Below, piece by piece: positions 7,719 through 59,228 of a DNA stretch of 64,000 bases. Every line of letters begins with the position of its first letter. Position 1 is the stretch's first letter. The notes below the pieces were generated by a model. The model did not search any database. It saw nothing but the letters and a program-made list of their open reading frames with translations, and was not told the DNA's origin. The stretch comes from Acidimicrobiia bacterium UBA5794 (GTDB lineage Bacteria; Actinomycetota; Acidimicrobiia; Spongiisociales; UBA5794): the NCBI GenBank assembly GCA_002418265.1, contig DIDS01000014.1:72588-136587 (forward strand), given 5' to 3'. The position numbers were made by a program, and so were the translations under genes.

Positions 7719-7783
7719 ATTCGCTCCTTGGCTCGCCGTGCACAGCACGCTAGTCATTCATCGTCGGATCGAAGCGATGCAGA

Positions 7784-7812
7784 TGTCAGACGTCAGACGT
7801 CAGACGTCAGAT
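7784..7812. repeat. Heptamer tandem array (GTCAGAC)x4
   Basis: cagatgtcagacgtcagacgtcagacgtcagatc. Confidence 0.8.
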
Positions 7813-8416: not shown

Positions 8417-8439
8417 AGTCTGACGTCGGACGTCTGACT
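8417..8439. repeat. Palindromic heptamer element (TCTGACG/GACGTCT) containing the stop codon of the upstream HD-domain gene
   Basis: agtctgacgtcggacgtctgactag. Confidence 0.7.
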
Positions 8440-9676: not shown

Positions 9677-11123
9677 GGTTCGCCTCCGGTTTGTCAGACT
9701 CGGCTGGTCGTTGGCGGGCGCTCTGTCTCAGCTCGTCGTACTTCATCCGGGCTCTGGCGGAAAGGTCACCGAAGCCGTGCTCGGCTCTGCGGCGGGCCTC
9801 GTCCTCAGAGATCTCAACCGGAGACCCGTACTGTTCGCCCGACGCGGTCAGAACTTCAATGAACGCCTCGACAACCTCGGGGTCGAACTGTGTGCCTGCG
9901 AACCTTCGCAGTTCGGCAAACGCATAGACCTGCGACATCGCCACTCGGTACGAGCGGGTTGAGGTCATGGCGTCGAAGGAATCGGCGACGGCAAGAATCC
10001 GTGCCTCCAAGGACGGCGTTTCTCCCTTGTCACCGGTCGATCCGTGGTAGCCCTTTCCGTCGAAGTGTGCGTGGTGGTTGGATGCGATCTCGACCATCGG
10101 TCTGAGGAACTCGACCTCACTCAGGAGATTCTCGACATGGTGGACGTGCCCCTGCATCTCTTTGTATTCGTCTTCGGTGAGTCGGGACTTCTTTCGGATG
10201 ACCTCGCGAGGAACAGCGAGCTTGCCGACATCGTGGATGAGCGCTGCCCACCGGAGACGCTCCAGCTGCGTCCCGTTGAAGCCGAGGTGCTGTCCGATCA
10301 TGTTTGAGAGGTAGGCAACGCGCTCGGTGTGTCCTCGCGTGTAGAGGTCCTTTGCCTCAAGCGCCTTGATGAACCCAGCAAGGGTGGAGAGCTGTGCCTC
10401 GCGCAACCCGGCGTATGACTCGAACGCCATGTATCCGGTGAAGAAGACAATGGCGATCAACGGCAACGATGCAGGCCCGATAAGCAGATAGGTCGTTCCA
10501 AGCAATCCGCCGAGGAAACCCATACCAATCAACGGGAGCACAATTGCCGGTACGTGGGACCAGGTGTTCATGCTTGCCCCGTAGACACGCCGGAAGATGA
10601 ATGAGACAAGGCCGAGATTGACGATCCCATAGATCGCGGCCGCCAATCCAGTCGCGATGGCTATGAGCCCGACCATCGACGTCGACACGGTCCATTCACC
10701 CGATTCGTCCCCGATCTGGACCATTAGAACGGCGAGCACTCCAGTCGAAACAGCTGTAGTAGCAACAAGCTGTCCGAGATTGGCCGCTGGCTGGAACCAG
10801 CGCCGCTCGCGGATATCTGCTGGTGTGGCCATGGCAAGCGCAGCCATCGCCGCTGTACCCAATACTGCCGATTCCGGACCAAAGGCCACAGCGGCCGTCA
10901 TCATCACCATGACGGAGGGACTCGCAAAGAGCTTGTCGTTGACCTCGACCGCATTCCACTCGAAAAAGACGGCAGCGGCGGCGAACGTCGCCCATGGCCA
11001 GAACGGCCGGGGAAAGCTCTGGGTAAAGAACAGAACAGCGAGGATCGCGACACCAAGCGCGGCGAAGACGATGGCGATTCGCTTCTTCTCACGCAGTTGG
11101 CGTGTCAGTTCGTCCTGGAACAT
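9669..11123 (-). CDS. Membrane-anchored HD-GYP domain phosphodiesterase (putative c-di-GMP PDE)
   Basis: HDVGK followed by HHAHFDGKGYH, a canonical HD-GYP signature, with a polytopic N-terminal membrane domain. Start at 11123 has a GAGGAA SD. Confidence 0.75.
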   Translation of the reverse strand: MFQDELTRQLREKKRIAIVFAALGVAILAVLFFTQSFPRPFWPWATFAAAAVFFEWNAVEVNDKLFASPSVMVMMTAAVAFGPESAVLGTAAMAALAMATPADIRERRWFQPAANLGQLVATTAVSTGVLAVLMVQIGDESGEWTVSTSMVGLIAIATGLAAAIYGIVNLGLVSFIFRRVYGASMNTWSHVPAIVLPLIGMGFLGGLLGTTYLLIGPASLPLIAIVFFTGYMAFESYAGLREAQLSTLAGFIKALEAKDLYTRGHTERVAYLSNMIGQHLGFNGTQLERLRWAALIHDVGKLAVPREVIRKKSRLTEDEYKEMQGHVHHVENLLSEVEFLRPMVEIASNHHAHFDGKGYHGSTGDKGETPSLEARILAVADSFDAMTSTRSYRVAMSQVYAFAELRRFAGTQFDPEVVEAFIEVLTASGEQYGSPVEISEDEARRRAEHGFGDLSARARMKYDELRQSARQRPAESDKPEANRG

Positions 11124-13953: not shown

Positions 13954-15039
13954 ATGGTTTATCTTGCTGAGCCCGAACATCTCGGTGATCTCCTCCCCAA
14001 CGAGCCCCGCTACCGCACGGACCAACTGACGGAATGGCTGTACCGACATCCGGTGCTCGATGCCTCCGCAATGACCAACCTCCCGGCATCGGTGCGCGAG
14101 TCCATCAGTTCCGATCTCTGGCCGTTCGAGCTCGTCATCGACCAGGTTGGTGACGGAGGAGAAACTCGGAAATGGCTGTTTCGATGTCACGACGGTTCCC
14201 AAATCGAGACGGTCCTGATGGGGTACTCGTCGAGAACGACGCTCTGTATCTCCTCCCAAGTTGGGTGCGCCATGGGGTGTACGTTCTGTGCGACCGGACA
14301 ATTCGGATTCGACCGGCATCTTTCGGCAGGCGAGATCGTCGCGCAGGTCGCGTACGCAAACGCGTACCTGGCGGCCACGCCGCTCCCCCGCAGCCCCGAA
14401 CGAGTCACGAATGTCGTGTTCATGGGCATGGGCGAGCCCCTCGCGAACTACACCCACACACGCGAATCGATCAGGCGAATGATTGAGATCATGGGAATGT
14501 CAGCGCGGTCGATCACCGTATCGACGGTGGGTTTCGTGCCGGGGATGAGAAGGCTGATCGAGGAGCCATGGCCGATGAACCTGGCCGTCAGTCTGCACTC
14601 GACCATCCCTTCCGAACGAACGAAGCTGGTACCCATCAACAAGCGCTATCCGATCGACGATGTCGTGGAGGCCGCCCACGACTACTACAAGGCAAAGGGA
14701 CGGCGCGTGTCGCTCGAATGGACGCTCATCGCAGGTGAGAACGATTCCGACGAAGAGGCGATTGGGCTTGCGCGCATCGCCAGAGAGATCCACGCCCACG
14801 TGAACGTGATCGCTTTGAACCCAACACCACTGAGCACCGATCGCCCACCCGATCGGGACCACGTCAGACGCTTTCTCGCAACACTTGCGCGAGAAGGCGC
14901 AAACGTGACGCTCCGAGACACCCGCGGCCAAGACATCGACGCCGCCTGCGGCCAACTCAGACTCCGAAACTCGCGTACCCAGGGTATGAACCCACCCTCA
15001 CGGTCGTTGTCAGCCCAAAGAACGGGCGAACTACGCTGA
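13954..15039 (+). CDS. rlmN: 23S rRNA (adenine2503-C2)/tRNA methyltransferase RlmN (radical SAM)
   Basis: CAMGCTFCATG radical-SAM motif, VFMGMGEPLANY, and a C-terminal ACGQL. The last roughly 22 codons are encoded by a half-copy of the palindromic repeat found at 32764-32818. Confidence 0.9.
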   Translation: MVYLAEPEHLGDLLPNEPRYRTDQLTEWLYRHPVLDASAMTNLPASVRESISSDLWPFELVIDQVGDGGETRKWLFRCHDGSQIETVLMGYSSRTTLCISSQVGCAMGCTFCATGQFGFDRHLSAGEIVAQVAYANAYLAATPLPRSPERVTNVVFMGMGEPLANYTHTRESIRRMIEIMGMSARSITVSTVGFVPGMRRLIEEPWPMNLAVSLHSTIPSERTKLVPINKRYPIDDVVEAAHDYYKAKGRRVSLEWTLIAGENDSDEEAIGLARIAREIHAHVNVIALNPTPLSTDRPPDRDHVRRFLATLAREGANVTLRDTRGQDIDAACGQLRLRNSRTQGMNPPSRSLSAQRTGELR

Positions 15040-15083
15040 GCATTCCCGTCACACATTCCCGTCACCAACAAGCGAGGTATCTG

Positions 15084-15545
15084 ATGCAACTTGAGACAGG
15101 GCAGAAGGCTCCGGCGTTCACAGCTGAGGACCAGACAGGCACCGTCCGGACTTCGGACGAGTTCGCCGGATCAAAACTGATCATCTACTTCTACCCGGAC
15201 GCGTTCACACCGGGCTGCACGACGGAGTCCTGCGACTTTCGCGACCGGCACGAGTTCCTCGCTGCACAGGGGTATCAGATCCTCGGTGTTTCACCAAATC
15301 ATCCTGACAAGCTGCAAAAGTTCAAGGACGAGTACAAGCTTCCGTTCGATCTGCTCTCAGATCCAGACAACACCATGTCTGCATCCTTCGGGGCATACGG
15401 CCTCAAGAAGAACTACGGCCGCGAGTACATGGGCATCATCCGCTCGACATTCCTGATCGACGCCGACGGTGTCATCGAAGATGCCTTCTACAACGTCCAG
15501 GCCACAGGTCACGCTGAACGCATCACGAAGTCGATCGAGGGCTGA
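15084..15545 (+). CDS. bcp: Thioredoxin-dependent peroxiredoxin Bcp
   Basis: FTPGCTTESC peroxidatic Cys motif, 153 aa. Confidence 0.85.
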   Translation: MQLETGQKAPAFTAEDQTGTVRTSDEFAGSKLIIYFYPDAFTPGCTTESCDFRDRHEFLAAQGYQILGVSPNHPDKLQKFKDEYKLPFDLLSDPDNTMSASFGAYGLKKNYGREYMGIIRSTFLIDADGVIEDAFYNVQATGHAERITKSIEG

Positions 15546-25735: not shown

Positions 25736-25836
25736 GTCAGACGTCAGACGTCAGAGAGCCCCCCTGCCCCTCGCTGCGCTCGGCGCGTCCCCCCGCAAGC
25801 GGGAGGACGGGAAGAAGAAGTCAGACGTCAGAAACC
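25736..25836. repeat. Composite intergenic repeat: (GTCAGAC)x3, GC-rich hairpin module, (GTCAGAC)x2
   Basis: gtcagacgtcagacgtcagagAGCCCCCCTGCCCCTCGCTGCGCTCGGCGCGTCCCCCCGCAAGCGGGAGGACGGGAAGAAGaagtcagacgtcagaa; sits in the divergent LCP/typA promoter region. Confidence 0.8.
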
Positions 25837-32001: not shown

Positions 32002-32745
32002 TTGAAGAAGGCCACCATTGTCGTTGGGATTGCTGCGCTTGCGGTTGCCGTTTCTGCGTGCACACCGTCAGTCACCGTCGAATCGCCGAGCGCACCGTCC
32101 GAAGCGGCACCGTCTGGTATTTCCGTAAGCGGTATCGGGGAAGTCACGGGTACGCCGGACACGTTGACGATGTCCTTTGGGGTCTCCGTCATACGCGACT
32201 CCGTATCAGAAGCAGTAGCGATCGCCGCACAAAAGGCCGAAGCCGTCATCGAATCGCTGAAAGCAAACGGTTTGGCGGAAGAGGACATCCAAACGGCGAA
32301 CTACTCGGTGTATCCCCAGTACGACTGGAGCAACAACACCCAAAAGCTCATCGGCTACCAGGTGAACAACTCGGTGATTGCCAAGATCAGGGATCTCGAC
32401 ACTGCTGGAACCGTCATTGATGGCGCAACCGGCGCAGGTGGAGACGAGACAACGGTGAGCGGAGTGTCGTTCTCGATCGAGGACAACGACGCACTCATCG
32501 AGGCTGCCCGCGAGGCTGCGTGGAACGATGCCAAGCAGAAGGCCGAACAACTCGCATCGCTGTCTGGTGTGACCCTCGGAAGTCCGATATCTGTATCTGA
32601 GACGTTCGCGCCCTCTCCCCAGCCATTTGCCTACGACGAGATTGCCTATGCAATGGCCGATGGTGCCGAGGTCACCACACCGATCAATCCGGGTGAACAG
32701 CAAGTCGCGGTGTCACTCTCCGTTCAGTTCTCCATCCAGGATTGA
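32002..32745 (+). CDS. SIMPL-domain (DUF541, BP26/OMP28-like) lipoprotein
   Basis: Lipobox AVSAC plus a SIMPL-type repeat fold signature. Confidence 0.7.
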   Translation: MKKATIVVGIAALAVAVSACTPSVTVESPSAPSEAAPSGISVSGIGEVTGTPDTLTMSFGVSVIRDSVSEAVAIAAQKAEAVIESLKANGLAEEDIQTANYSVYPQYDWSNNTQKLIGYQVNNSVIAKIRDLDTAGTVIDGATGAGGDETTVSGVSFSIEDNDALIEAAREAAWNDAKQKAEQLASLSGVTLGSPISVSETFAPSPQPFAYDEIAYAMADGAEVTTPINPGEQQVAVSLSVQFSIQD

Positions 32746-32763: not shown

Positions 32764-32818
32764 CGCGTACCCAGGGTATGAACCCACCCTCACGGTCGGT
32801 TCATACCCTGGGTACGCG
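32764..32818. repeat. Perfect 20-bp-stem palindrome (loop 13 nt); a half-copy lies in the rlmN 3' end
   Basis: GCGTACCCAGGGTATGAACC-caccctcacggtc-GGTTCATACCCTGGGTACGC. The left arm plus loop recur at about 14973-15007. Confidence 0.85.
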
Positions 32819-32941: not shown

Positions 32942-33502
32942 ATGAGACCCGTGAGGATGACCATTGCGGTCGGATTCCTGGCGCTCGTCGCTACGGGATG
33001 TAGCGGTGGAGAAACCGTTGCCAGCACAACCACCACGACCGTTCCCTTCACAACAACATCGGTTGCGGCAACAACGTCGACAACCACATCAACCACAACG
33101 ACCACCACCGTGCCGCCAAGCCTTGGGGCCACGTCGACCATTTTCCGCGTCCAGCAGGATTTGGCTGCACTCGGCTTCTTTGATGGCCAGATTGATGGGA
33201 TAGCGGGTGAGGAGACACAAAAAGCTCTCAAGGCCTTCCAGACACAACAGGGCTTGGAGGCCGACGGCGAGTTCGGGCCAAAGACGGATGCGGCCCTCTA
33301 CCCGCTCCTGATGAAGAACAAGGCCTATGTCGAGAGCCTCCAGGAAGATCTGACCGAGGCAGGCTTGTACACCGGCCCAATCGATGGCAGCTATGGCAAG
33401 GGAACCAAGGCCGCCGTTGAGAAGCTCCAGGAATCCTGTGACATCGAAAAGACAGGGAACATCGATATCGCGACACGGATATGTCTCGACGAAGCGATTT
33501 AG
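32942..33502 (+). CDS. Lipoprotein with Thr-rich linker and two peptidoglycan-binding (PG_binding_1) domains
   Basis: Lipobox ATGC, and two repeats of ...LGF/LY.G.IDG..G..T..A...FQ... Confidence 0.7.
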   Translation: MRPVRMTIAVGFLALVATGCSGGETVASTTTTTVPFTTTSVAATTSTTTSTTTTTTVPPSLGATSTIFRVQQDLAALGFFDGQIDGIAGEETQKALKAFQTQQGLEADGEFGPKTDAALYPLLMKNKAYVESLQEDLTEAGLYTGPIDGSYGKGTKAAVEKLQESCDIEKTGNIDIATRICLDEAI

Positions 33503-33505
33503 GAA

Positions 33506-33532
33506 TCTGACGTCTGACGTCTGAGATCAGAC
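33506..33532. repeat. Heptamer tandem array (TCTGACG)x3
   Basis: tctgacgtctgacgtctgagatcagac, immediately after the stop codon of the PG-binding lipoprotein. Confidence 0.8.
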
Positions 33533-33555: not shown

Positions 33556-34056
33556 ATGACCCTCACTGCGGAACTTATCAATGCGGTTACCTGGAAGATC
33601 CCGAACGCGCTTGCCCTTGTTGGTTCGCGATCAGATGACGAGTGGAATGGAATGACAACGTCTTGGATCACCCAGGTATCCCAAGACCCGATACTCATCG
33701 GAATCGGTGTCGATACTGTCGCAATCACGCACCGGCTCATCGCCGATGGAGGGAGCTTCACGGTCAACTTGTGGGATGCGGAAGATACGCGTCCGTTCGT
33801 GAAGTTCTCCAAGCCAGCGACAAAGGACGGAATGACACTCAACGGACTTGCGATCACCGAGGGGCAAACCGGGGCCCCGATCTTTGACGATGCCATTGCC
33901 TGGCTTGAATGCGTCGTGGTGAATCCGGTGCCTTGCGGCACCCATACGTTCTTCATCGGTGAGCTCGTCGCTGCCGGCATCAACGACGATGAGGCAAGAC
34001 CAGCCTCCATGGCAGACACTCGCATGAAGTACGGGGGGACGCGAAGAGGTCATTGA
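33556..34056 (+). CDS. Flavin reductase-like (FMN-binding split-barrel, RutF/HpaC family) protein
   Basis: Flavin_Reduct-like pattern (ALVGSRSDDEWNGMTTSWITQVSQDPILIGIGV...). Confidence 0.7.
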   Translation: MTLTAELINAVTWKIPNALALVGSRSDDEWNGMTTSWITQVSQDPILIGIGVDTVAITHRLIADGGSFTVNLWDAEDTRPFVKFSKPATKDGMTLNGLAITEGQTGAPIFDDAIAWLECVVVNPVPCGTHTFFIGELVAAGINDDEARPASMADTRMKYGGTRRGH

Positions 34057-34135
34057 TCAGAAGTCAGACGTCAGACGTCAGACGTCAGACGTCAGATGCT
34101 GTGAGCTGTGAGCCGTAAGCTGTGAGCAGCGAGTA
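34057..34135. repeat. Longest heptamer array: (GTCAGAC)x6 followed by (GCTGTGA/GCCGTAA)x5, upstream of aceE
   Basis: tcagaagtcagacgtcagacgtcagacgtcagacgtcagatgctgtgagctgtgagccgtaagctgtgagcagcgag. Confidence 0.85.
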
Positions 34136-41999: not shown

Positions 42000-42990
42000 C
42001 CAGCCGCTCATTGAGCTGACCGATCTGGTCAAGCAGTTCCCGGTCAGGGGTGGGGTCCTCCAGCGACAGGTCGCGACGGTCAATGCCGTCGCTGGTGTGA
42101 GCATGACGATCTCGCGCGGCGAGACCGTTGGGCTCGTCGGTGAGTCGGGATGCGGCAAATCCACCCTTGGCCGTTTGCTGACACGGCTGCTTGAACCGAC
42201 GTCAGGGAAAATCATCTTCGACGGCGCCGACATCACACACCTCCAAGGCAAGCAGCTCAAGCCGTTCCGGAAACGTGTCCAGATCATCTTCCAAGATCCG
42301 TACTCCTCCCTTGATCCACGGACCCAGGTCGGGAACTCGATCTCAGAGGGTCTCAAGCTCCACGGCATCGGGGACAAGGATGAACGGCGCGACCGAGTCA
42401 CCAAGATGCTCGAACTCGTGGGGCTTGAGGCACATCATGCGAGCCGATTCCCACACGAATTCTCTGGAGGACAACGTCAGCGGATCGGCATCGCGCGAGC
42501 TCTCATCCTCGAGCCCGATTTCGTTGTTGCTGACGAACCCGTGTCGGCGCTCGATGTCTCCGTCCAAGCCCAAGTCCTCAACCTGTTGAAGGAGTTACAG
42601 TCGGAGCTGGATCTGACACTGTTGTTCATCGCGCACAACCTCGCGGTGGTCGAGCACATCTCGGACCGTGTCGCCGTCATGTATCTGGGCAGAATTGCAG
42701 AAATCACCGACCGCGAGAGCCTCTACAAGAACCCGCTCCATCCCTACACCGAAGCATTGCTCTCTGCGATCCCGATCCCCGACCCCGATCGTCCCCGGAA
42801 TCGCACGATTCTCCAGGGCGAGGTGCCCTCCCCGATCGACCCACCATCGGGGTGCTTCTTCCATCCGCGGTGCCCGATCGCTGTCGAAGGTGTGTGCGAT
42901 GTCGAGGTACCCCAACTCGAGCAATCGACGACGAGCGCTGATCACCTCGCGGCCTGCCACGTCCGAACGGGCCGCCTGAGCCGGCTGTGA
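41992..42990 (+). CDS. ABC transporter ATP-binding protein (DppF/OppF-like)
   Basis: Walker [10 protein letters not shown], signature FSGGQRQR. The stop codon lies inside the first unit of the downstream heptamer array. Confidence 0.85.
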
Positions 42991-43020
42991 GCCGAAAGCT
43001 GTGAGCCGAAAGCTGAAATA
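42984..43020. repeat. 14-mer (two-heptamer) tandem array, (GCTGTGAGCCGAAA)x2 plus GCTGAAA
   Basis: gctgtgagccgaaagctgtgagccgaaagctgaaata. Confidence 0.8.
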
Positions 43021-43754: not shown

Positions 43755-44116
43755 GACTCGGCCTCTCCGTCTTCCTCATCCTGAGATGGAACTTCGGCGA
43801 CTGGTTCAGCCGTCCCGAAACCGACACGATTTGGATCTGAACCGCTCAGGTTGGTGTCCAACATCTCGGTAAAGCTGTTGCCGGCCTGTTTCAGATCATC
43901 CTTGATTCCCTGAAGATCATCTCTGGCGGTCTTGATCGGATCGGCTGCATCGTGCCACTCGCCGGAGATCTCCTCGACAAACTGGGAGGTTGCCTGACGA
44001 GCCTTGGAGAGCAGCTCCCCCATCTTGCGCGCAAACTCCGGCAGTCGGTCGGGTCCAAAGATGATCAGGATCACAACCACGATGGTCACGATCTCTGCGA
44101 AAGAAAGACTGCCCAT
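43751..44116 (-). CDS. tatA: Twin-arginine translocase subunit TatA/TatB family
   Basis: TM segment followed by an amphipathic helix (IVTIVVVILIIFGPDRLPEFARKMGELL). ATGA overlap with tatC. Confidence 0.75.
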   Translation of the reverse strand: MGSLSFAEIVTIVVVILIIFGPDRLPEFARKMGELLSKARQATSQFVEEISGEWHDAADPIKTARDDLQGIKDDLKQAGNSFTEMLDTNLSGSDPNRVGFGTAEPVAEVPSQDEEDGEAES

Positions 44117-44141
44117 TTGTGGAACGCTACAACGTTCCACG

Positions 44142-44275
44142 ACCTTCAGGGAGGCGTGCGAGCCAGCGAACCCCGTCAGTCCGACGTCGGAAAGCCCCCC
44201 TGCACCTCGCTGCGCTCGGCGCGTCCCCCCGCAAGCGGGAGGACGGATATGGGAGAAAGCTGAAAGCTCTCTAAC
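44142..44275. repeat. Composite repeat: GCGTGCGAGCC...CCCCGTC box, short GACGTC element, GC-rich hairpin module, (AGCTGAA)x2
   Basis: ggaggcgtgcgagccagcgaaccccgtcagtccgacgtcggaaAGCCCCCCTGCACCTCGCTGCGCTCGGCGCGTCCCCCCGCAAGCGGGAGGACGGatatgggagaaagctgaaagctctc. This is nearly the same arrangement as 2341-2452. Confidence 0.8.
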
Positions 44276-49498: not shown

Positions 49499-49569
49499 GG
49501 AGAGAACCCTAGCTCTCAGCACCCAGCTCCCAAGCGGGAGTTGGTCCCCTTGTCCTTTGTCTCCCACAC

Positions 49570-49660
49570 CCGTCCTCCCGCTTGCGGGGGGACGCGAGGA
49601 GCGAAGCGACGATGCAGGGGGGGGCAGTCCGACTTCTGACTTCTGACTTCTGACTTCTGG
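49570..49660. repeat. GC-rich hairpin module (inverted orientation) plus (GACTTCT)x4 heptamer array
   Basis: ccgtcctcccgcttgcggggggacgcgaggagcgaagcgacgatgcaggggggggcagtccgacttctgacttctgacttctgacttctgg. Confidence 0.8.
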
Positions 49661-54160: not shown

Positions 54161-54218
54161 GTGGCATGGTCAGCGAGGACGCAGATCTCTCGTTGATCAC
54201 GATGGGGGACGGTGCGGA

Positions 54219-54256
54219 TGTCAGAAGTCAGAAGCTGAAAGCTGTGAGCTGAAAGC
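54219..54256. repeat. Heptamer array (GTCAGAA)x2 and (GCTGAAA/GCTGTGA)x3
   Basis: gtcagaagtcagaagctgaaagctgtgagctgaaagcc. Confidence 0.8.
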
Positions 54257-54272
54257 CGGGGTCGAAGACCCC

Positions 54273-54292
54273 CTGAGTGAGTGCTCACTCAG
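54273..54292. promoter_or_regulatory. Perfect 9-2-9 inverted repeat, candidate TetR operator, about 20 nt upstream of the TetR gene
   Basis: CTGAGTGAG-tg-CTCACTCAG, preceded by a small hairpin GGGGTC-gaa-GACCCC. Confidence 0.4.
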
Positions 54293-56671: not shown

Positions 56672-58635
56672 CCAGCAGCGGCAAGAACGGGGAGCTCAAA
56701 ACAACCGAGCGTGTGGTGGCACAGGGAGGCCCCGGGCGTGGAATGGGCGGCGGACAGATCGCCCAGAAACCGTTGGCATTCAAGGAGTCAGGGAAGCGGC
56801 TGCTGAACAGGCTCAGACCGCAAGGGCTGAAGGTGGCCTTTGTGTTGCTCGCAGCCATTGTGAGCGTCGGCCTCGCATCCCTTGGTCCACGCGTCCTCGG
56901 ACGTGCGACCGACCTGATCTTCGCCGGTGCCATCGGGGGCCAGCTGCCTGCGGGAATGACGAAGCAACAAGTGATTGATTCCGCAACAGCTTCGGGTAAT
57001 CACAAGCTGGCGGACATGCTCTCAGGCATCGACATTGTGCCGGGCACCGGCATCGACTTTCGAGCGGTCGGCACCGTTCTTCTCATCGTCATTGTCCTCT
57101 ACGTCGGATCAGCATTGCTGTCCTTCCTCCAGGGGTACCTCCTCAACGACGTCGTTCAGGACACAGTCATGAAACTTCGCGCTGAAGTTGAGGACAAGAT
57201 CCACAAACTGCCGCTCAGCTACTTCGACCGCCAACCCCGTGGTGAACTCCTCTCGCGGGTGACCAACGACATCGACAATGTGTCCCAAAGTCTTCAGCAG
57301 ACAATGAGTCAGCTCCTCACGTCGCTCCTCACCGTCGTCTTCGTGGTGATAATGATGGTTTTGATCTCCCCTGTCCTTGCTCTGATTGCTCTGATCACCA
57401 TCCCGGTAACCATGGTCATTGCTGCCCTGATCATGACGCGGTCCCAGAAACAGTTCGTGACCCAGTGGAGACGGACCGGGACGGTCAACGCCCAGGTCGA
57501 GGAGGCATTCACCGGGCATTCGCTGATCAAGGTGTTTGGACGCCAGGACGAAGTGCAAGACGTGTTCGAGTCCGAGAACGAGCAGCTCTATGAGGCAAGC
57601 TTCTCGGCCCAGTTCCTCTCCGGCCTGATCATGCCGATCATGATGTTCATTGGGAATTTGAACTATGTGATCATCGCGGTCATCGGGGGACTGCGGGTCG
57701 CGAGCGGAACGATGAGTCTCGGGGATGTGCAGGCGTTCATCCAATACTCGCGTCAGTTCACCCAGCCCGTCACCCAGATTGCCTCAATGGTGAACCTGCT
57801 CCAATCAGGGGTCGCATCAGCAGAACGCGTCTTCGAACTCCTCGACGCCGAGGAAGAAGAGCCAACCGACCATCATCCACGAATGGTCGACAACCCTCGT
57901 GGTCGCGTGGTGTTTGAGGACGTCTCGTTCCGCTACGAGCCGGACCAGCCCCTGATCGAGGATCTGTCGATGGTGGTCGAGCCCGGACAGACGGTTGCCA
58001 TCGTTGGACCCACCGGCGCCGGCAAGACGACGCTCGTGAACCTGATCATGCGCTTCTACGAACTCGACGGCGGTCGTATCACCCTCGATGGTGTCGACAC
58101 CTCGCTCATGCCGCGTGCTGACCTGCGATCCCGGATCGGGATGGTGCTCCAGGACACGTGGTTGTTCAAGGGAACGATCCGCGACAACATCGCGTACGGC
58201 AATCCCGATGCCACCGAAGACGAGCTCCTTGAAGCCGCGAAGGCAACGTTCGTGGACCGCTTCGTCCACAGCCTTCCCGACGGCTATGACACCGTCATCG
58301 ACGACGAGGGGACAAACATCTCATCTGGTGAAAAACAGCTCATCACCATCGCGAGAGCCTTCGTCGCGCAGCCAGCACTCCTGATTCTGGATGAAGCAAC
58401 GAGCTCTGTTGACACGCGCACCGAACTGCTCGTACAGCACGCCATGGCAGCGCTCCGATCCGATCGAACGAGCTTTGTCATTGCTCACCGGCTGTCAACG
58501 ATCCGGGACGCCGATCTCATCCTTGTGATGGAGGAGGGACGCATCGTCGAGCGGGGGACCCATGGGGAACTCCTCGATCGCAATGGAGCCTATGCGTCGC
58601 TGTACAACTCGCAATTCGGCATGTCTGACGTCTGA
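56668..58635 (+). CDS. ABC exporter, fused permease/ATPase (half-transporter 2; heterodimer partner)
   Basis: Walker A GPTGAGKTTL and signature SSGEKQL. ATGA overlap with the upstream gene. The last four codons (MSDV-stop) lie inside the palindromic heptamer array. Confidence 0.85.
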   Translation: MTSSGKNGELKTTERVVAQGGPGRGMGGGQIAQKPLAFKESGKRLLNRLRPQGLKVAFVLLAAIVSVGLASLGPRVLGRATDLIFAGAIGGQLPAGMTKQQVIDSATASGNHKLADMLSGIDIVPGTGIDFRAVGTVLLIVIVLYVGSALLSFLQGYLLNDVVQDTVMKLRAEVEDKIHKLPLSYFDRQPRGELLSRVTNDIDNVSQSLQQTMSQLLTSLLTVVFVVIMMVLISPVLALIALITIPVTMVIAALIMTRSQKQFVTQWRRTGTVNAQVEEAFTGHSLIKVFGRQDEVQDVFESENEQLYEASFSAQFLSGLIMPIMMFIGNLNYVIIAVIGGLRVASGTMSLGDVQAFIQYSRQFTQPVTQIASMVNLLQSGVASAERVFELLDAEEEEPTDHHPRMVDNPRGRVVFEDVSFRYEPDQPLIEDLSMVVEPGQTVAIVGPTGAGKTTLVNLIMRFYELDGGRITLDGVDTSLMPRADLRSRIGMVLQDTWLFKGTIRDNIAYGNPDATEDELLEAAKATFVDRFVHSLPDGYDTVIDDEGTNISSGEKQLITIARAFVAQPALLILDEATSSVDTRTELLVQHAMAALRSDRTSFVIAHRLSTIRDADLILVMEEGRIVERGTHGELLDRNGAYASLYNSQFGMSDV

Positions 58636-58662
58636 CGTCTGACGTCGGAGGTCGGACGTCAG
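58623..58662. repeat. Palindromic heptamer array (TCTGACG)x3-ggaggtcg-GACGTCAG that supplies the stop codons of both convergent genes (ABC exporter on +, mobB on -)
   Basis: gtctgacgtctgacgtctgacgtcggaggtcggacgtcagtg. Confidence 0.8.
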
Positions 58663-59228
58663 TGGGCGGCGCTTGCGGTGGGGTGCGTGCAGGCGAGCCC
58701 CGCGATGAATCCGGCGATTGCCGACACGGCAGTGGGATCGAGTACGGGAACACTGACCGACCAACTCGCATCACTCACGATCGCAGAAAGCTCGGTCGGG
58801 TCGCATAGAAGATCGTTGCTGTTGTCGGCTCTGTGTACCTCGATCTTGGGGTAGGTCGATGACCGTCCTCCCTCGATGAGCACAAGGTCAGCGTCGGCCA
58901 TGTGTGCACAAACAACCGCGTCGATGTCGGGTGAGCGGCTCGGCGCCCGAAACACTGCGACCTGTACCGGACTCATCCCGACCACAACTTCGGCACCGGA
59001 ACGAGAGAAGCGATCGGTGTCCTTGTCTGCCAGGTCAAACGCACTGCTGCGATGGTGGTGCTTGATCACCCCAACTCGGAAACCGCGGTGCGCGAGATTC
59101 GGAACCAGTGCCTCGATCAAGGTTGTTTTTCCCGATCCCGACCGGCCAACGATGGCAACGACGGCCGGTGATGTTTCGCCGTACCCGCCGAACAAAGGAA
59201 AGATATCGCTCTGGCCATTTGACATCAT
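58659..59228 (-). CDS. mobB: Molybdopterin-guanine dinucleotide biosynthesis adapter protein MobB
   Basis: P-loop VAIVGRSGSGKTTL and MobB-type VIKHHH. Start at MMSNGQ with an AAGGAGG SD. Confidence 0.8.
   Translation of the reverse strand: MMSNGQSDIFPLFGGYGETSPAVVAIVGRSGSGKTTLIEALVPNLAHRGFRVGVIKHHHRSSAFDLADKDTDRFSRSGAEVVVGMSPVQVAVFRAPSRSPDIDAVVCAHMADADLVLIEGGRSSTYPKIEVHRADNSNDLLCDPTELSAIVSDASWSVSVPVLDPTAVSAIAGFIAGLACTHPTASAAH

Follow-up and report, generated by a model that had tools for sequence, protein, structure and literature searches.

Very probably, a ~55-nt REP/MITE-like repeat lies over the former stop codon of rlmN in the window, by which we mean the whole 64,000-nt stretch of Acidimicrobiia DNA analyzed here, and adds a passenger tail to the encoded RlmN protein. 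Members of this repeat family usually sit 1–20 nt past stop codons in either orientation, often overlapping the last codons, and at rlmN a unit occupies the 3' end at the place of the native stop. The junction puts the gene in frame 3 of the unit, a frame that is open in this copy because the loop reads CCCTCACGG, not CCGTGACGG. Translation would then cross the whole unit and end at the first in-frame TGA, 12 nt beyond it in the old 3' UTR. The features concerned are as follows, in coordinates of the window.

13954–15039, plus strand: rlmN coding sequence including the repeat-encoded tail, 361 aa (ORF list and homologs)
13954–14967, plus strand: conserved RlmN core, residues 1–338, ending ...DIDAACGQLRLR, common to all 118 close CGQL-bearing orthologs
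14972–15026, plus strand: full copy of the repeat unit at the rlmN 3' end (nhmmer, model positions 1–55, E = 6.8e-15)
14972–15006, plus strand: 35 nt identical to 32764–32798, the left arm plus loop of the palindrome
15029–15039, plus strand: post-unit segment AACTACGCTGA, apparently former 3'-UTR sequence, kept in the window clade; the TGA at 15037–15039 is the present rlmN stop
15041–15066, plus strand: 13-nt tandem duplication, CATTCCCGTCACA / CATTCCCGTCACC, in the rlmN–bcp spacer
15084–15545, plus strand: bcp (AhpC/TSA peroxiredoxin), downstream of rlmN and syntenic in all relatives
32764–32818: perfect-palindrome variant of the repeat family, two left arms around a central hairpin

The RlmN tail and its match within the window

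The product is a 23S rRNA/tRNA m2A radical-SAM methyltransferase, judged by 8000 homologs, many of them named RlmN, and by Pfam matches to PF04055 and PF21016. Both the Radical_SAM and the RlmN_N domain are present, with the DIDAACGQL cysteine loop at residues 327–335, and relatives keep the genes in the order HHH_5, rlmN, bcp, NTP_transferase. A PDB structure of RlmN (6fz6) aligned to residues 16–339 only of the 361-aa product (E = 1.5e-84), the C-terminus of which reads ...DIDAACGQLRLRNSRTQGMNPPSRSLSAQRTGELR before the stop.

Tail lengths were compared among the 118 best homologs with the CGQL motif. Eighty-two have eight or fewer residues after CGQL, with a mode of seven (RLR plus 3–4 residues), while 36 have 9–30; the window protein, with 26, has one of the three longest tails. 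Orthologs without the unit illustrate the short ending, with L004 stopping at ...RLRGADS TGA and L071 at ...RLRAADG TGA. This agrees with the preliminary description, which had proposed looking at ortholog stops: L004, L071 and the 82 short-tailed homologs mostly stop 3–4 codons past CGQLRLR. That description had assigned everything after CGQL to the repeat. A repeat-encoded excess is indeed there, but RLR and the next 3–4 residues are native, being the normal end in close orthologs, so the true excess is ~19–21 codons. Among the best 120 homologs, TQG[MK]NP occurs only in the window protein (P0001) and in one 88% identical to it (P0002), and the only homologs with RTQG(M/K)NP... tails are those that carry the repeat in their DNA. 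Repeat-free orthologs sharing the tail, which had been named beforehand as the observation that would speak against a repeat origin, were not seen.

Within the window, the 21-mer CGCGTACCCAGGGTATGAACC occurs exactly three times, at 14972–14992 (+), 32764–32784 (+) and 32798–32818 (−), with no further occurrence there even when up to three mismatches are allowed; none is expected by chance, judged by 100 shuffles. The following 14 nt, CACCCTCACGGTCG, are identical as well (14993–15006 vs. 32785–32798), so the shared stretch amounts to 35 nt. The DNA at the rlmN end thus does match the left arm plus loop of the palindrome at 32764–32818, as had been claimed, and the coordinates of the palindrome hold; only the start of the match had been placed one base late (14973 for 14972) and the stem counted as 20 bp instead of 21 bp. 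The perfect stem of 21 bp extends to 25 bp with one mismatch, closing on a 5-nt loop, and as RNA the palindrome has a minimum free energy of −49.5 kcal/mol (z = −8.7 vs. shuffles). It starts 18 nt past the stop of the gene at 32002–32745 (+).

The exact RlmN protein is also encoded on JAOSJN010000001.1 (GCA_027494075.1, an NCBI MAG named 'Acidimicrobiia bacterium'), a JGI metagenome contig of 253 kb encodes it too, and Logan assemblies carry the same gene. Scans of metagenome_contigs with the 21-mer and with a junction-specific pattern gave no match, missing even the JGI contigs that have the sequence, so these samples are apparently absent from that collection. Since the gene is identical in independent assemblies, the tail is no assembly artefact. 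That the similarity reflects chance, or an error of assembly or binning, is scarcely conceivable given the zero matches expected in shuffles, the E-value of the profile match, these identical genes and the orthologous copies in other lineages.

The repeat family and its habits at gene ends

Alignment of all copies gave as family consensus an asymmetric ~55-nt unit consisting of CGCGTACCCAGGGTATGAACCCACC, a 5–7 nt loop and GGTGGGTTACAGCCCACAGAAYGA. The unpaired end is CGCGTACCCA, which contains GTAC, and the opposite end reads ...CAGAAYGA. An nhmmer profile built from 76 family units matched the rlmN 3' end over model positions 1–55, so the rlmN piece is a whole unit and not half a palindrome, as the preliminary description had it. 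Perfect palindromes, with a right arm complementary to the left one, are rare, being found at 3 of ~77 sites: 32764 in the window, its ortholog at CAVQOG locus L033, and L027. The 32764 palindrome is absent from the corresponding CAZULI locus, L048. The rlmN copy scored slightly better than either strand of the 32764 palindrome, and the profile scan of the window returned no significant match beyond these two. The sole other match at E < 0.01 in the window was the reverse strand of the rlmN site.

In the rlmN copy the left arm, CGCGTACCCAGGGTATGAACCCACC, is intact, and degeneration has affected the central hairpin and the right arm (GGTCGTTGTCAGCCCAAAGAACGG). A fold of −22.4 kcal/mol (z = −2.3) was computed for the canonical unit; the rlmN copy is no more stable than shuffled sequence (z = −1.2), its hairpin having been lost. 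A GGTCG variant, rare in the family, is common to the rlmN copy and the 32764 palindrome of the window. Across ~70 copies the left arm is invariant, which is partly an ascertainment effect because most copies were retrieved with an exact 19-mer.

That 19-mer, GCGTACCCAGGGTATGAAC, was searched for as an exact match in one genome per species. The scan gave 61 loci, 28 of them in MAG CAVQOG01 and 30 in MAG CAZULI01, both Acidimicrobiia; the remainder were two loci in QQUL01 (labelled Armatimonadetes) and one apparent chance match. A search for further copies, which had been suggested earlier, thus yielded ~30 loci in each of two Acidimicrobiia MAGs, mostly at gene 3' ends. By simple ORF criteria, a long, high-GC3 ORF ends within ~100 nt of 68 out of 79 units, with 46 ORF ends at the CGCG end of a unit, 44 at the other end, and gaps mostly of 1–20 nt. 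Where genes converge, each can own a unit, with the CGCG end facing its stop. About 18% of units lie between divergent genes, according to crude gene calls. Inverted units also bound composites of ~200 bp in L003/L011, L012 and L051 (e.g. L003 1730–1945).

What a gene entering the unit encodes depends on frame and direction. Frame 1 gives RVPRV, five codons followed by the TGA of GTATGAACC, and at least five Pfam-confirmed genes end with ...RVPRV and this stop within a unit: two nitroreductases, an alpha/beta hydrolase, argininosuccinate lyase (in both MAGs) and a GT2 glycosyltransferase. ORFs entering from the opposite side end in ...FCGL. Frame 3 gives RTQGMNPP, after which the loop decides: CCG TGA ends the frame, and CCC TCA or CCG TGG leaves it open. 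The rlmN tail, where the unit copy reads RTQGMNPPSRSLSAQRTG, is the frame-3 case of this general habit of the family. Two long ORFs entering units, in L036 and L034, were discarded as spurious, having no Pfam match and an odd composition.

The rlmN site in relatives

The unit stands at the rlmN 3' end in five lineages (window, L069, L010, L068 and L003), in the same orientation and frame throughout, and these lineages show four different ends. The sequences past RLR are listed here.

Window: NS-RTQGMNPPSRSLSAQRTGELR, then stop; reads through as far as a TGA of the former 3' UTR
L069/QQUL: NT-RTQGKNPLSRSVSAQRTVELP, then stop; reads through as far as a TGA of the former 3' UTR
L003/CAZULI: VT-RTQGMNPPSRSVTAHRMRRKEADAT, then stop; read-through, 11 nt into bcp
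L010/CAVQOG: ASDKRMAP-RTQGMNPP, then stop; stop in the GTGAC loop of the unit
L068: heavily decayed unit, read as CLRRRSTRLHPDGELNV...

Across these lineages, DNA identity falls to ~81% in the rlmN core and to ~76% in the flanking region; flanking identity to the window is ~84% for CAVQOG, ~76% for L003/CAZULI and ~72% for the unit-free L004. An insertion as recent as the preliminary description implied is at odds with a site occupied in at least five lineages whose cores are this divergent. The L069 copy has two substitutions in its 25-nt left arm.

Downstream of the unit, AACTACCCTGA aligns in the window, L069, L010 and L068. In L004, ACTACCCTG stands directly past the native stop, a correspondence visible in the raw sequences, although MAFFT left it unaligned to the post-unit segment. 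Because ACTACCCTG follows the L004 native stop immediately, the present rlmN stop appears to lie in what was once 3' UTR. Farther along, the 13-nt sequence of the rlmN–bcp spacer is single copy in L069 and a tandem pair in the window.

Upstream of the unit, L010 and L068 have 18–20 extra nt after RLR, with native-like 'AS D' codons, and the window and L069 have the short junction in common with L003, which is more distant. A neighbor-joining tree of RlmN cores did not separate later insertion from repeated deletion as the source of this 18-nt indel. We infer a single ancient insertion at the rlmN 3' end. The repeat does lie where the native stop and 3' end would be, as had been described; the insertion itself may have replaced the stop, as was further claimed, or, in view of the L010 and L068 junctions, the stop may have gone with a later 18-nt in-frame deletion or other stop loss.

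It is rather unlikely that the rlmN 3' end is instead an insertion hot spot which units entered independently in different lineages. Spacers can be used recurrently or turn over, as seen between AzlD and ECH, where the window has no unit, CAVQOG one and L003 two, and the 18-nt junction difference between L010/L068 and window/L069/L003 would fit separate entries. So would the unit-free P0003/L071, which is about as close to the window protein (88.7% aa) as L003 is (89.6%). However, all lineages agree in orientation and reading frame, three of them also in the junction codon, the window, L069 and L003 copies have the rare GGTCG variant in common, AACTACCCTGA is common within the window clade, and by identity L003 is nearest to that clade.

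In the RlmN core, codon differences are mostly synonymous, with synonymous:nonsynonymous ratios of 110:27 (window vs. L069) and 132:36 (window vs. L003). In the tail the same comparisons give 2:6 and 0:7 (Fisher test, tail vs. core: p = 0.0019 for L069 and p = 3.6e-5 for L003). These codon differences, together with the differing stops and the decay in L068, indicate no protein-level constraint on the tail, which, as far as sequence comparison can tell, would be a tolerated passenger without a function of its own. Recruitment of the tail as an arginine-rich C-terminal extension, contacting for example rRNA or tRNA near the CGQL cysteine loop, is very improbable. In the window, L069 and L003 no stop has closed the frame within the unit, the composition of the tail is basic, and natural C-terminal extensions exist in other RlmN proteins, as in the 36 orthologs above; but the changed codons are nonsynonymous in 6 of 8 and 7 of 7 cases, L010 ends after RTQGMNPP, the L068 sequence is different, and close orthologs manage without any such tail.

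Spread, possible function and relation to known repeats

Unit sites common to both MAGs include the 3' end of argH and sites flanking NifU-like and DUF559-like genes. Such shared sites, alongside spacers with differing unit numbers, indicate an old family whose units are gained and lost. Among the inverted unit pairs 0.5–2 kb apart that were inspected, none encloses a transposase or RAYT; they flank ordinary genes (amidohydrolase, LLM oxidoreductase, HBD dehydrogenase, NifU-like, YCII-like and DUF559-like). No parent or autonomous IS with the same ends was found in ~500 kb of loci, and no consistent direct repeat indicative of a target-site duplication flanks the palindromes or composites. With no transposase, RAYT, parent IS or target-site duplication found at these loci, mobility is argued from copy number and presence/absence differences only, and the units were presumably mobilised in trans by an enzyme. 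A scan of viral_contigs for the unit returned zero matches, so nothing ties it to phages.

None of integron attC, dif/Xer sites or tRNA-derived sequence fits the unit, compared by eye against their consensus cores. The units flank housekeeping genes in both orientations.

A less probable alternative to the passenger reading is that the unit is a selected cis-acting element, kept at the rlmN–bcp junction and other gene ends for that function, with the rlmN read-through as a by-product. It could act as a 3'-end hairpin, a terminator, an mRNA stabiliser or a protein-binding site at the near-palindrome GTACCCAGGGTAT. The strong association with gene 3' ends in both orientations would suit such a role, as would the convergent genes each facing the CGCG end of a unit, the stable fold of the canonical unit, and a left arm that is invariant, also in the rlmN copies of the window and L003, despite surrounding DNA identity of only ~76–81%. 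Against this, retrieval by the exact 19-mer partly accounts for the invariance, the rlmN copy is decaying in L069 and heavily decayed in L068, the window copy has lost its hairpin, and sites are freely gained and lost between relatives. The consensus fold that RNAalifold derived from 47 distinct units was weak and showed essentially no covariation (term −0.21), and a structured RNA motif with compensatory changes was dropped on this ground. The unit does not look like an intrinsic (Rho-independent) terminator: the sequence after the units is variable and has no T-run or U-tract; a terminator and promoter scan around the rlmN end (14800–15200) found none. Rfam returned no match at the gathering threshold in the whole window, and none at E ≤ 1 in 14900–15100.

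One observation sits awkwardly with the passenger reading. Over its first 35 nt the rlmN copy of the window matches that of L003, which was retrieved independently, without a single difference, their rlmN cores being only 80.6% identical in DNA, and the chance of identity over the 25-nt arm alone is ~0.005. This hints at DNA-level constraint or gene conversion, and a purely neutral 'dead passenger' view leaves it unexplained. A more specific version, that the arm CGCGTACCCAGGGTATGAACCCACC is the recognition site of a dedicated protein or RNA-guided system which marks gene 3' ends and is homogenised by gene conversion, strikes us as doubtful. On this reading the arm would have been kept intact across genus-level divergence in this Acidimicrobiia clade. 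The GGTCG variant shared by the rlmN copy and the 32764 palindrome fits the gene-conversion part. Both DNA constraint and a recognition site are kept at low probability because of the decay in L069 and L068 and the exact-word ascertainment of most copies. If a recognition site were nevertheless involved, the units would be functional 3'-end punctuation or regulatory sites, not junk. Where genes such as rlmN and argH are translated into a unit, termination or ribosome stalling could then be coupled to that function.

E. coli REPs near stop codons reportedly stall ribosomes and lower expression, as Liang and Deutscher are said to have found. There, as here, a repeat hairpin lies within a few nt of, or over, the stop of the upstream gene; unlike them, the window rlmN copy has lost its hairpin.

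The unit resembles known small repeats. REPs are found downstream of ORFs, whose stop codons often come from REP termini, and ~10% of them sit at ORF ends (PMC3733652). The GTAG- or CGTC-tagged REPs (Di Nocera et al. 2013, PMC3733652; Nunvar et al. 2010, PMC2817692) resemble the unit in being short, hairpin-forming and multi-copy, in lying mostly a short way past ORFs, between genes that are unidirectional or convergent, as singletons and inverted dimers, in termini that sometimes give the stop, in the coding minority at or inside ORF ends, and in forming lineage-specific families. In copy number and position the unit qualifies, being a short imperfect palindrome, longer than typical REPs, with ~28–30 loci per MAG by exact 19-mer, and mainly extragenic in the same setting (the 68 of 79 units above). 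It differs in its length of ~55 nt against 20–40 nt, its asymmetry, its CGCGTAC end in place of GTAG or CGTC, its modest copy number (~30 per MAG by exact 19-mer), and in that no RAYT was seen at the inspected loci. The GTAG (GYAG/GTRG) terminal tag is absent from the unit, and the CGTC tag is absent at both of its ends; the central CCCACC/GGTGGG stem with its 5–7 nt loop resembles that of a CGTC-type REP (8–9 bp stem, 4–5 nt loop) in size only. The unit thus behaves like a REP/MITE-type element but fails membership of the GTAG-REP/RAYT class on the tag. Its host class, the actinobacterial Acidimicrobiia, is not in the REP survey (PMC3733652), and among the papers searched we found none combining Acidimicrobiia with REPs.

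In-frame fusions are made by Rickettsia palindromic elements (RPEs) and other MITEs (PMC10969869). Like the unit, RPEs are selfish palindromic repeats translated in frame with a housekeeping gene, the added peptide being tolerated by the protein and persisting across several related species (PMC10969869). Unlike it, they measure ~100–150 bp and usually lie inside ORFs with the frame open on both sides, whereas the unit sits at the extreme 3' end, replaces the stop, and adds a C-terminal tail only; there is no sequence similarity. The MITEs Correia/NEMIS, ERIC/IRU and RUP share with some copies of the unit an inverted-repeat architecture (perfect palindromes, ~200-bp composites), and they too are intergenic and can alter the ends of neighboring ORFs. 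They differ in that no target-site duplication or arm-sharing parent IS was found for the unit, whose commonest form is solo and asymmetric, not bounded by terminal inverted repeats.

A small palindromic repeat that overlaps a gene end and is translated is thus an already documented type of event, and the repeat family itself is apparently undescribed, of a known kind, in an uncultured Acidimicrobiia clade. For annotation this means that the 361-aa RlmN consists of a normal enzyme, ~340–342 aa long, with a repeat-derived tail and no new domain; several other genes in these MAGs owe their odd C-termini (RVPRV, FCGL, RTQGMNPP...) to the same repeat family. The rlmN site offers a clean, datable example of a stop codon captured by a small palindromic repeat, with five lineages in different states: read-through, a stop within the unit, an end that overlaps the following gene, and decay. 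It opens no new mechanism, and extends REP-like elements to the Acidimicrobiia.

The rlmN-bcp junction and the GGTCG variant

The spacer between rlmN and bcp, the gene directly downstream, carries a 13-nt tandem duplication in the window (15041-15066), reading CATTCCCGTCACA and then CATTCCCGTCACC. The corresponding locus in QQUL01, L069, has a single copy of this 13-nt sequence. At the CAZULI01 locus L003, the rlmN ORF extended through the repeat unit shares 11 nt (10043-10053) with bcp, start codon included, so that read-through of the unit created a new gene overlap.

The CGCGTACCC units at rlmN in the window, L003 and L069 share with the window's palindrome a rare stem-breaking variant, GGTCG in place of the consensus GGTGG, which occurs in only 3 of the 75 distinct units. 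The segments bearing it are:

window 14993-15006, rlmN copy
window 32785-32798, palindrome
L003 9995-10008, rlmN copy
L069, rlmN copy

The palindrome's ortholog in CAVQOG01 (L033) has GGTGG and lacks GGTCG. The rlmN and palindrome copies in the window lie 17.8 kb apart, and the distribution of GGTCG hints at gene conversion between them.

The QQUL01 contigs (L043, L067, L069 and L070) are labelled 'Armatimonadetes bacterium' and bear the Acidimicrobiia repeat family. The QQUL01 RlmN (P0121, KAA3637398.1) is 92% identical to the window's RlmN, and the gene order is the same. Judged from these sequences, the QQUL01 MAG is probably mislabelled or contaminated.

Hairpin loops, sister repeats and composites

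The loops of the central hairpin in CGCGTACCC units are lineage-biased: A/T-rich loops (ATTTC, GTTTT, AAAAA and TTTTTT) are common at CAVQOG01 loci, whereas GTGGC, GTGAC and GCCAC are common at CAZULI01 loci. For several loops the reverse complement is also present (GTGAC/GTCAC, CTCAC/GTGAG and GTGGC/GCCAC). Together, the bias and the reverse-complement pairs suggest that the central hairpin may be homogenised within a genome, or flipped.

A sister repeat family has the GTACCCAGGGT core in common with the unit and then continues as ...TCCAGCCC; the palindrome CGCGTACCCAGGGTTCCAGCCCCACATTTTTGTTGGGCTGGAACCCTGGGTACACG is one example. Elsewhere, two inverted CGCGTACCC units enclose a partly similar inner stretch of ~100 nt, forming composites of ~200 bp that look like MITEs. 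The composite in L003 occupies the whole spacer between two convergent genes, and thus the stop of each gene faces a CGCG end. These elements are located at:

L019 696-750, sister family
L044 about 3005, sister family
L031 about 7230, sister family
L003 1730-1945 (the same as L011), composite
L012 3163-3365, composite
L051 3335-3536, composite

Other repeats in the intergenic spacers

Many intergenic spacers of the window hold heptamer repeats, found on both strands: GTCAGAC/GACGTCA in short tandem arrays, and GCTGTGA-type heptamers. These repeats are unrelated to the CGCGTACCC unit. A second dispersed module, CCCCCCTGCACCTCGCTGCGCTCGGCGCGTCCCCCCGCAAGCGGGAGGACGG, of about 55-68 nt, includes a GC-rich hairpin and is usually bordered by the heptamer arrays. 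A dense repeat cluster occupies 2096-2480. The window coordinates are:

2372-2390, 7780-7812, 8418-8438, 25736-25756, 25818-25832, 33500-33532, 34051-34097, 49627-49659, 54217-54232 and 58618-58664, GTCAGAC/GACGTCA arrays
34098-34129, 42984-43020 and 54233-54258, GCTGTGA-type heptamers
2386-2443, 25757-25810 and 44193-44256, CCCCCCTGCACCTCGCTGCGCTCGGCGCGTCCCCCCGCAAGCGGGAGGACGG module
49560-49609, CCCCCCTGCACCTCGCTGCGCTCGGCGCGTCCCCCCGCAAGCGGGAGGACGG module, inverted
2101-2176 and 2300-2375, 199-nt direct repeat, 97% identical, in the cluster
2101, 2300 and 2460, hairpin CTGTTCCCCCTTCAGGGGGAAC, three copies, in the cluster

At ~44116-44260 and 54217-54274, the window has these other repeat modules where related MAGs have a CGCGTACCC unit (L048 7748-7800 and L062 1729-1781). 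By this comparison of sequences, different repeat families reuse the same spacers.
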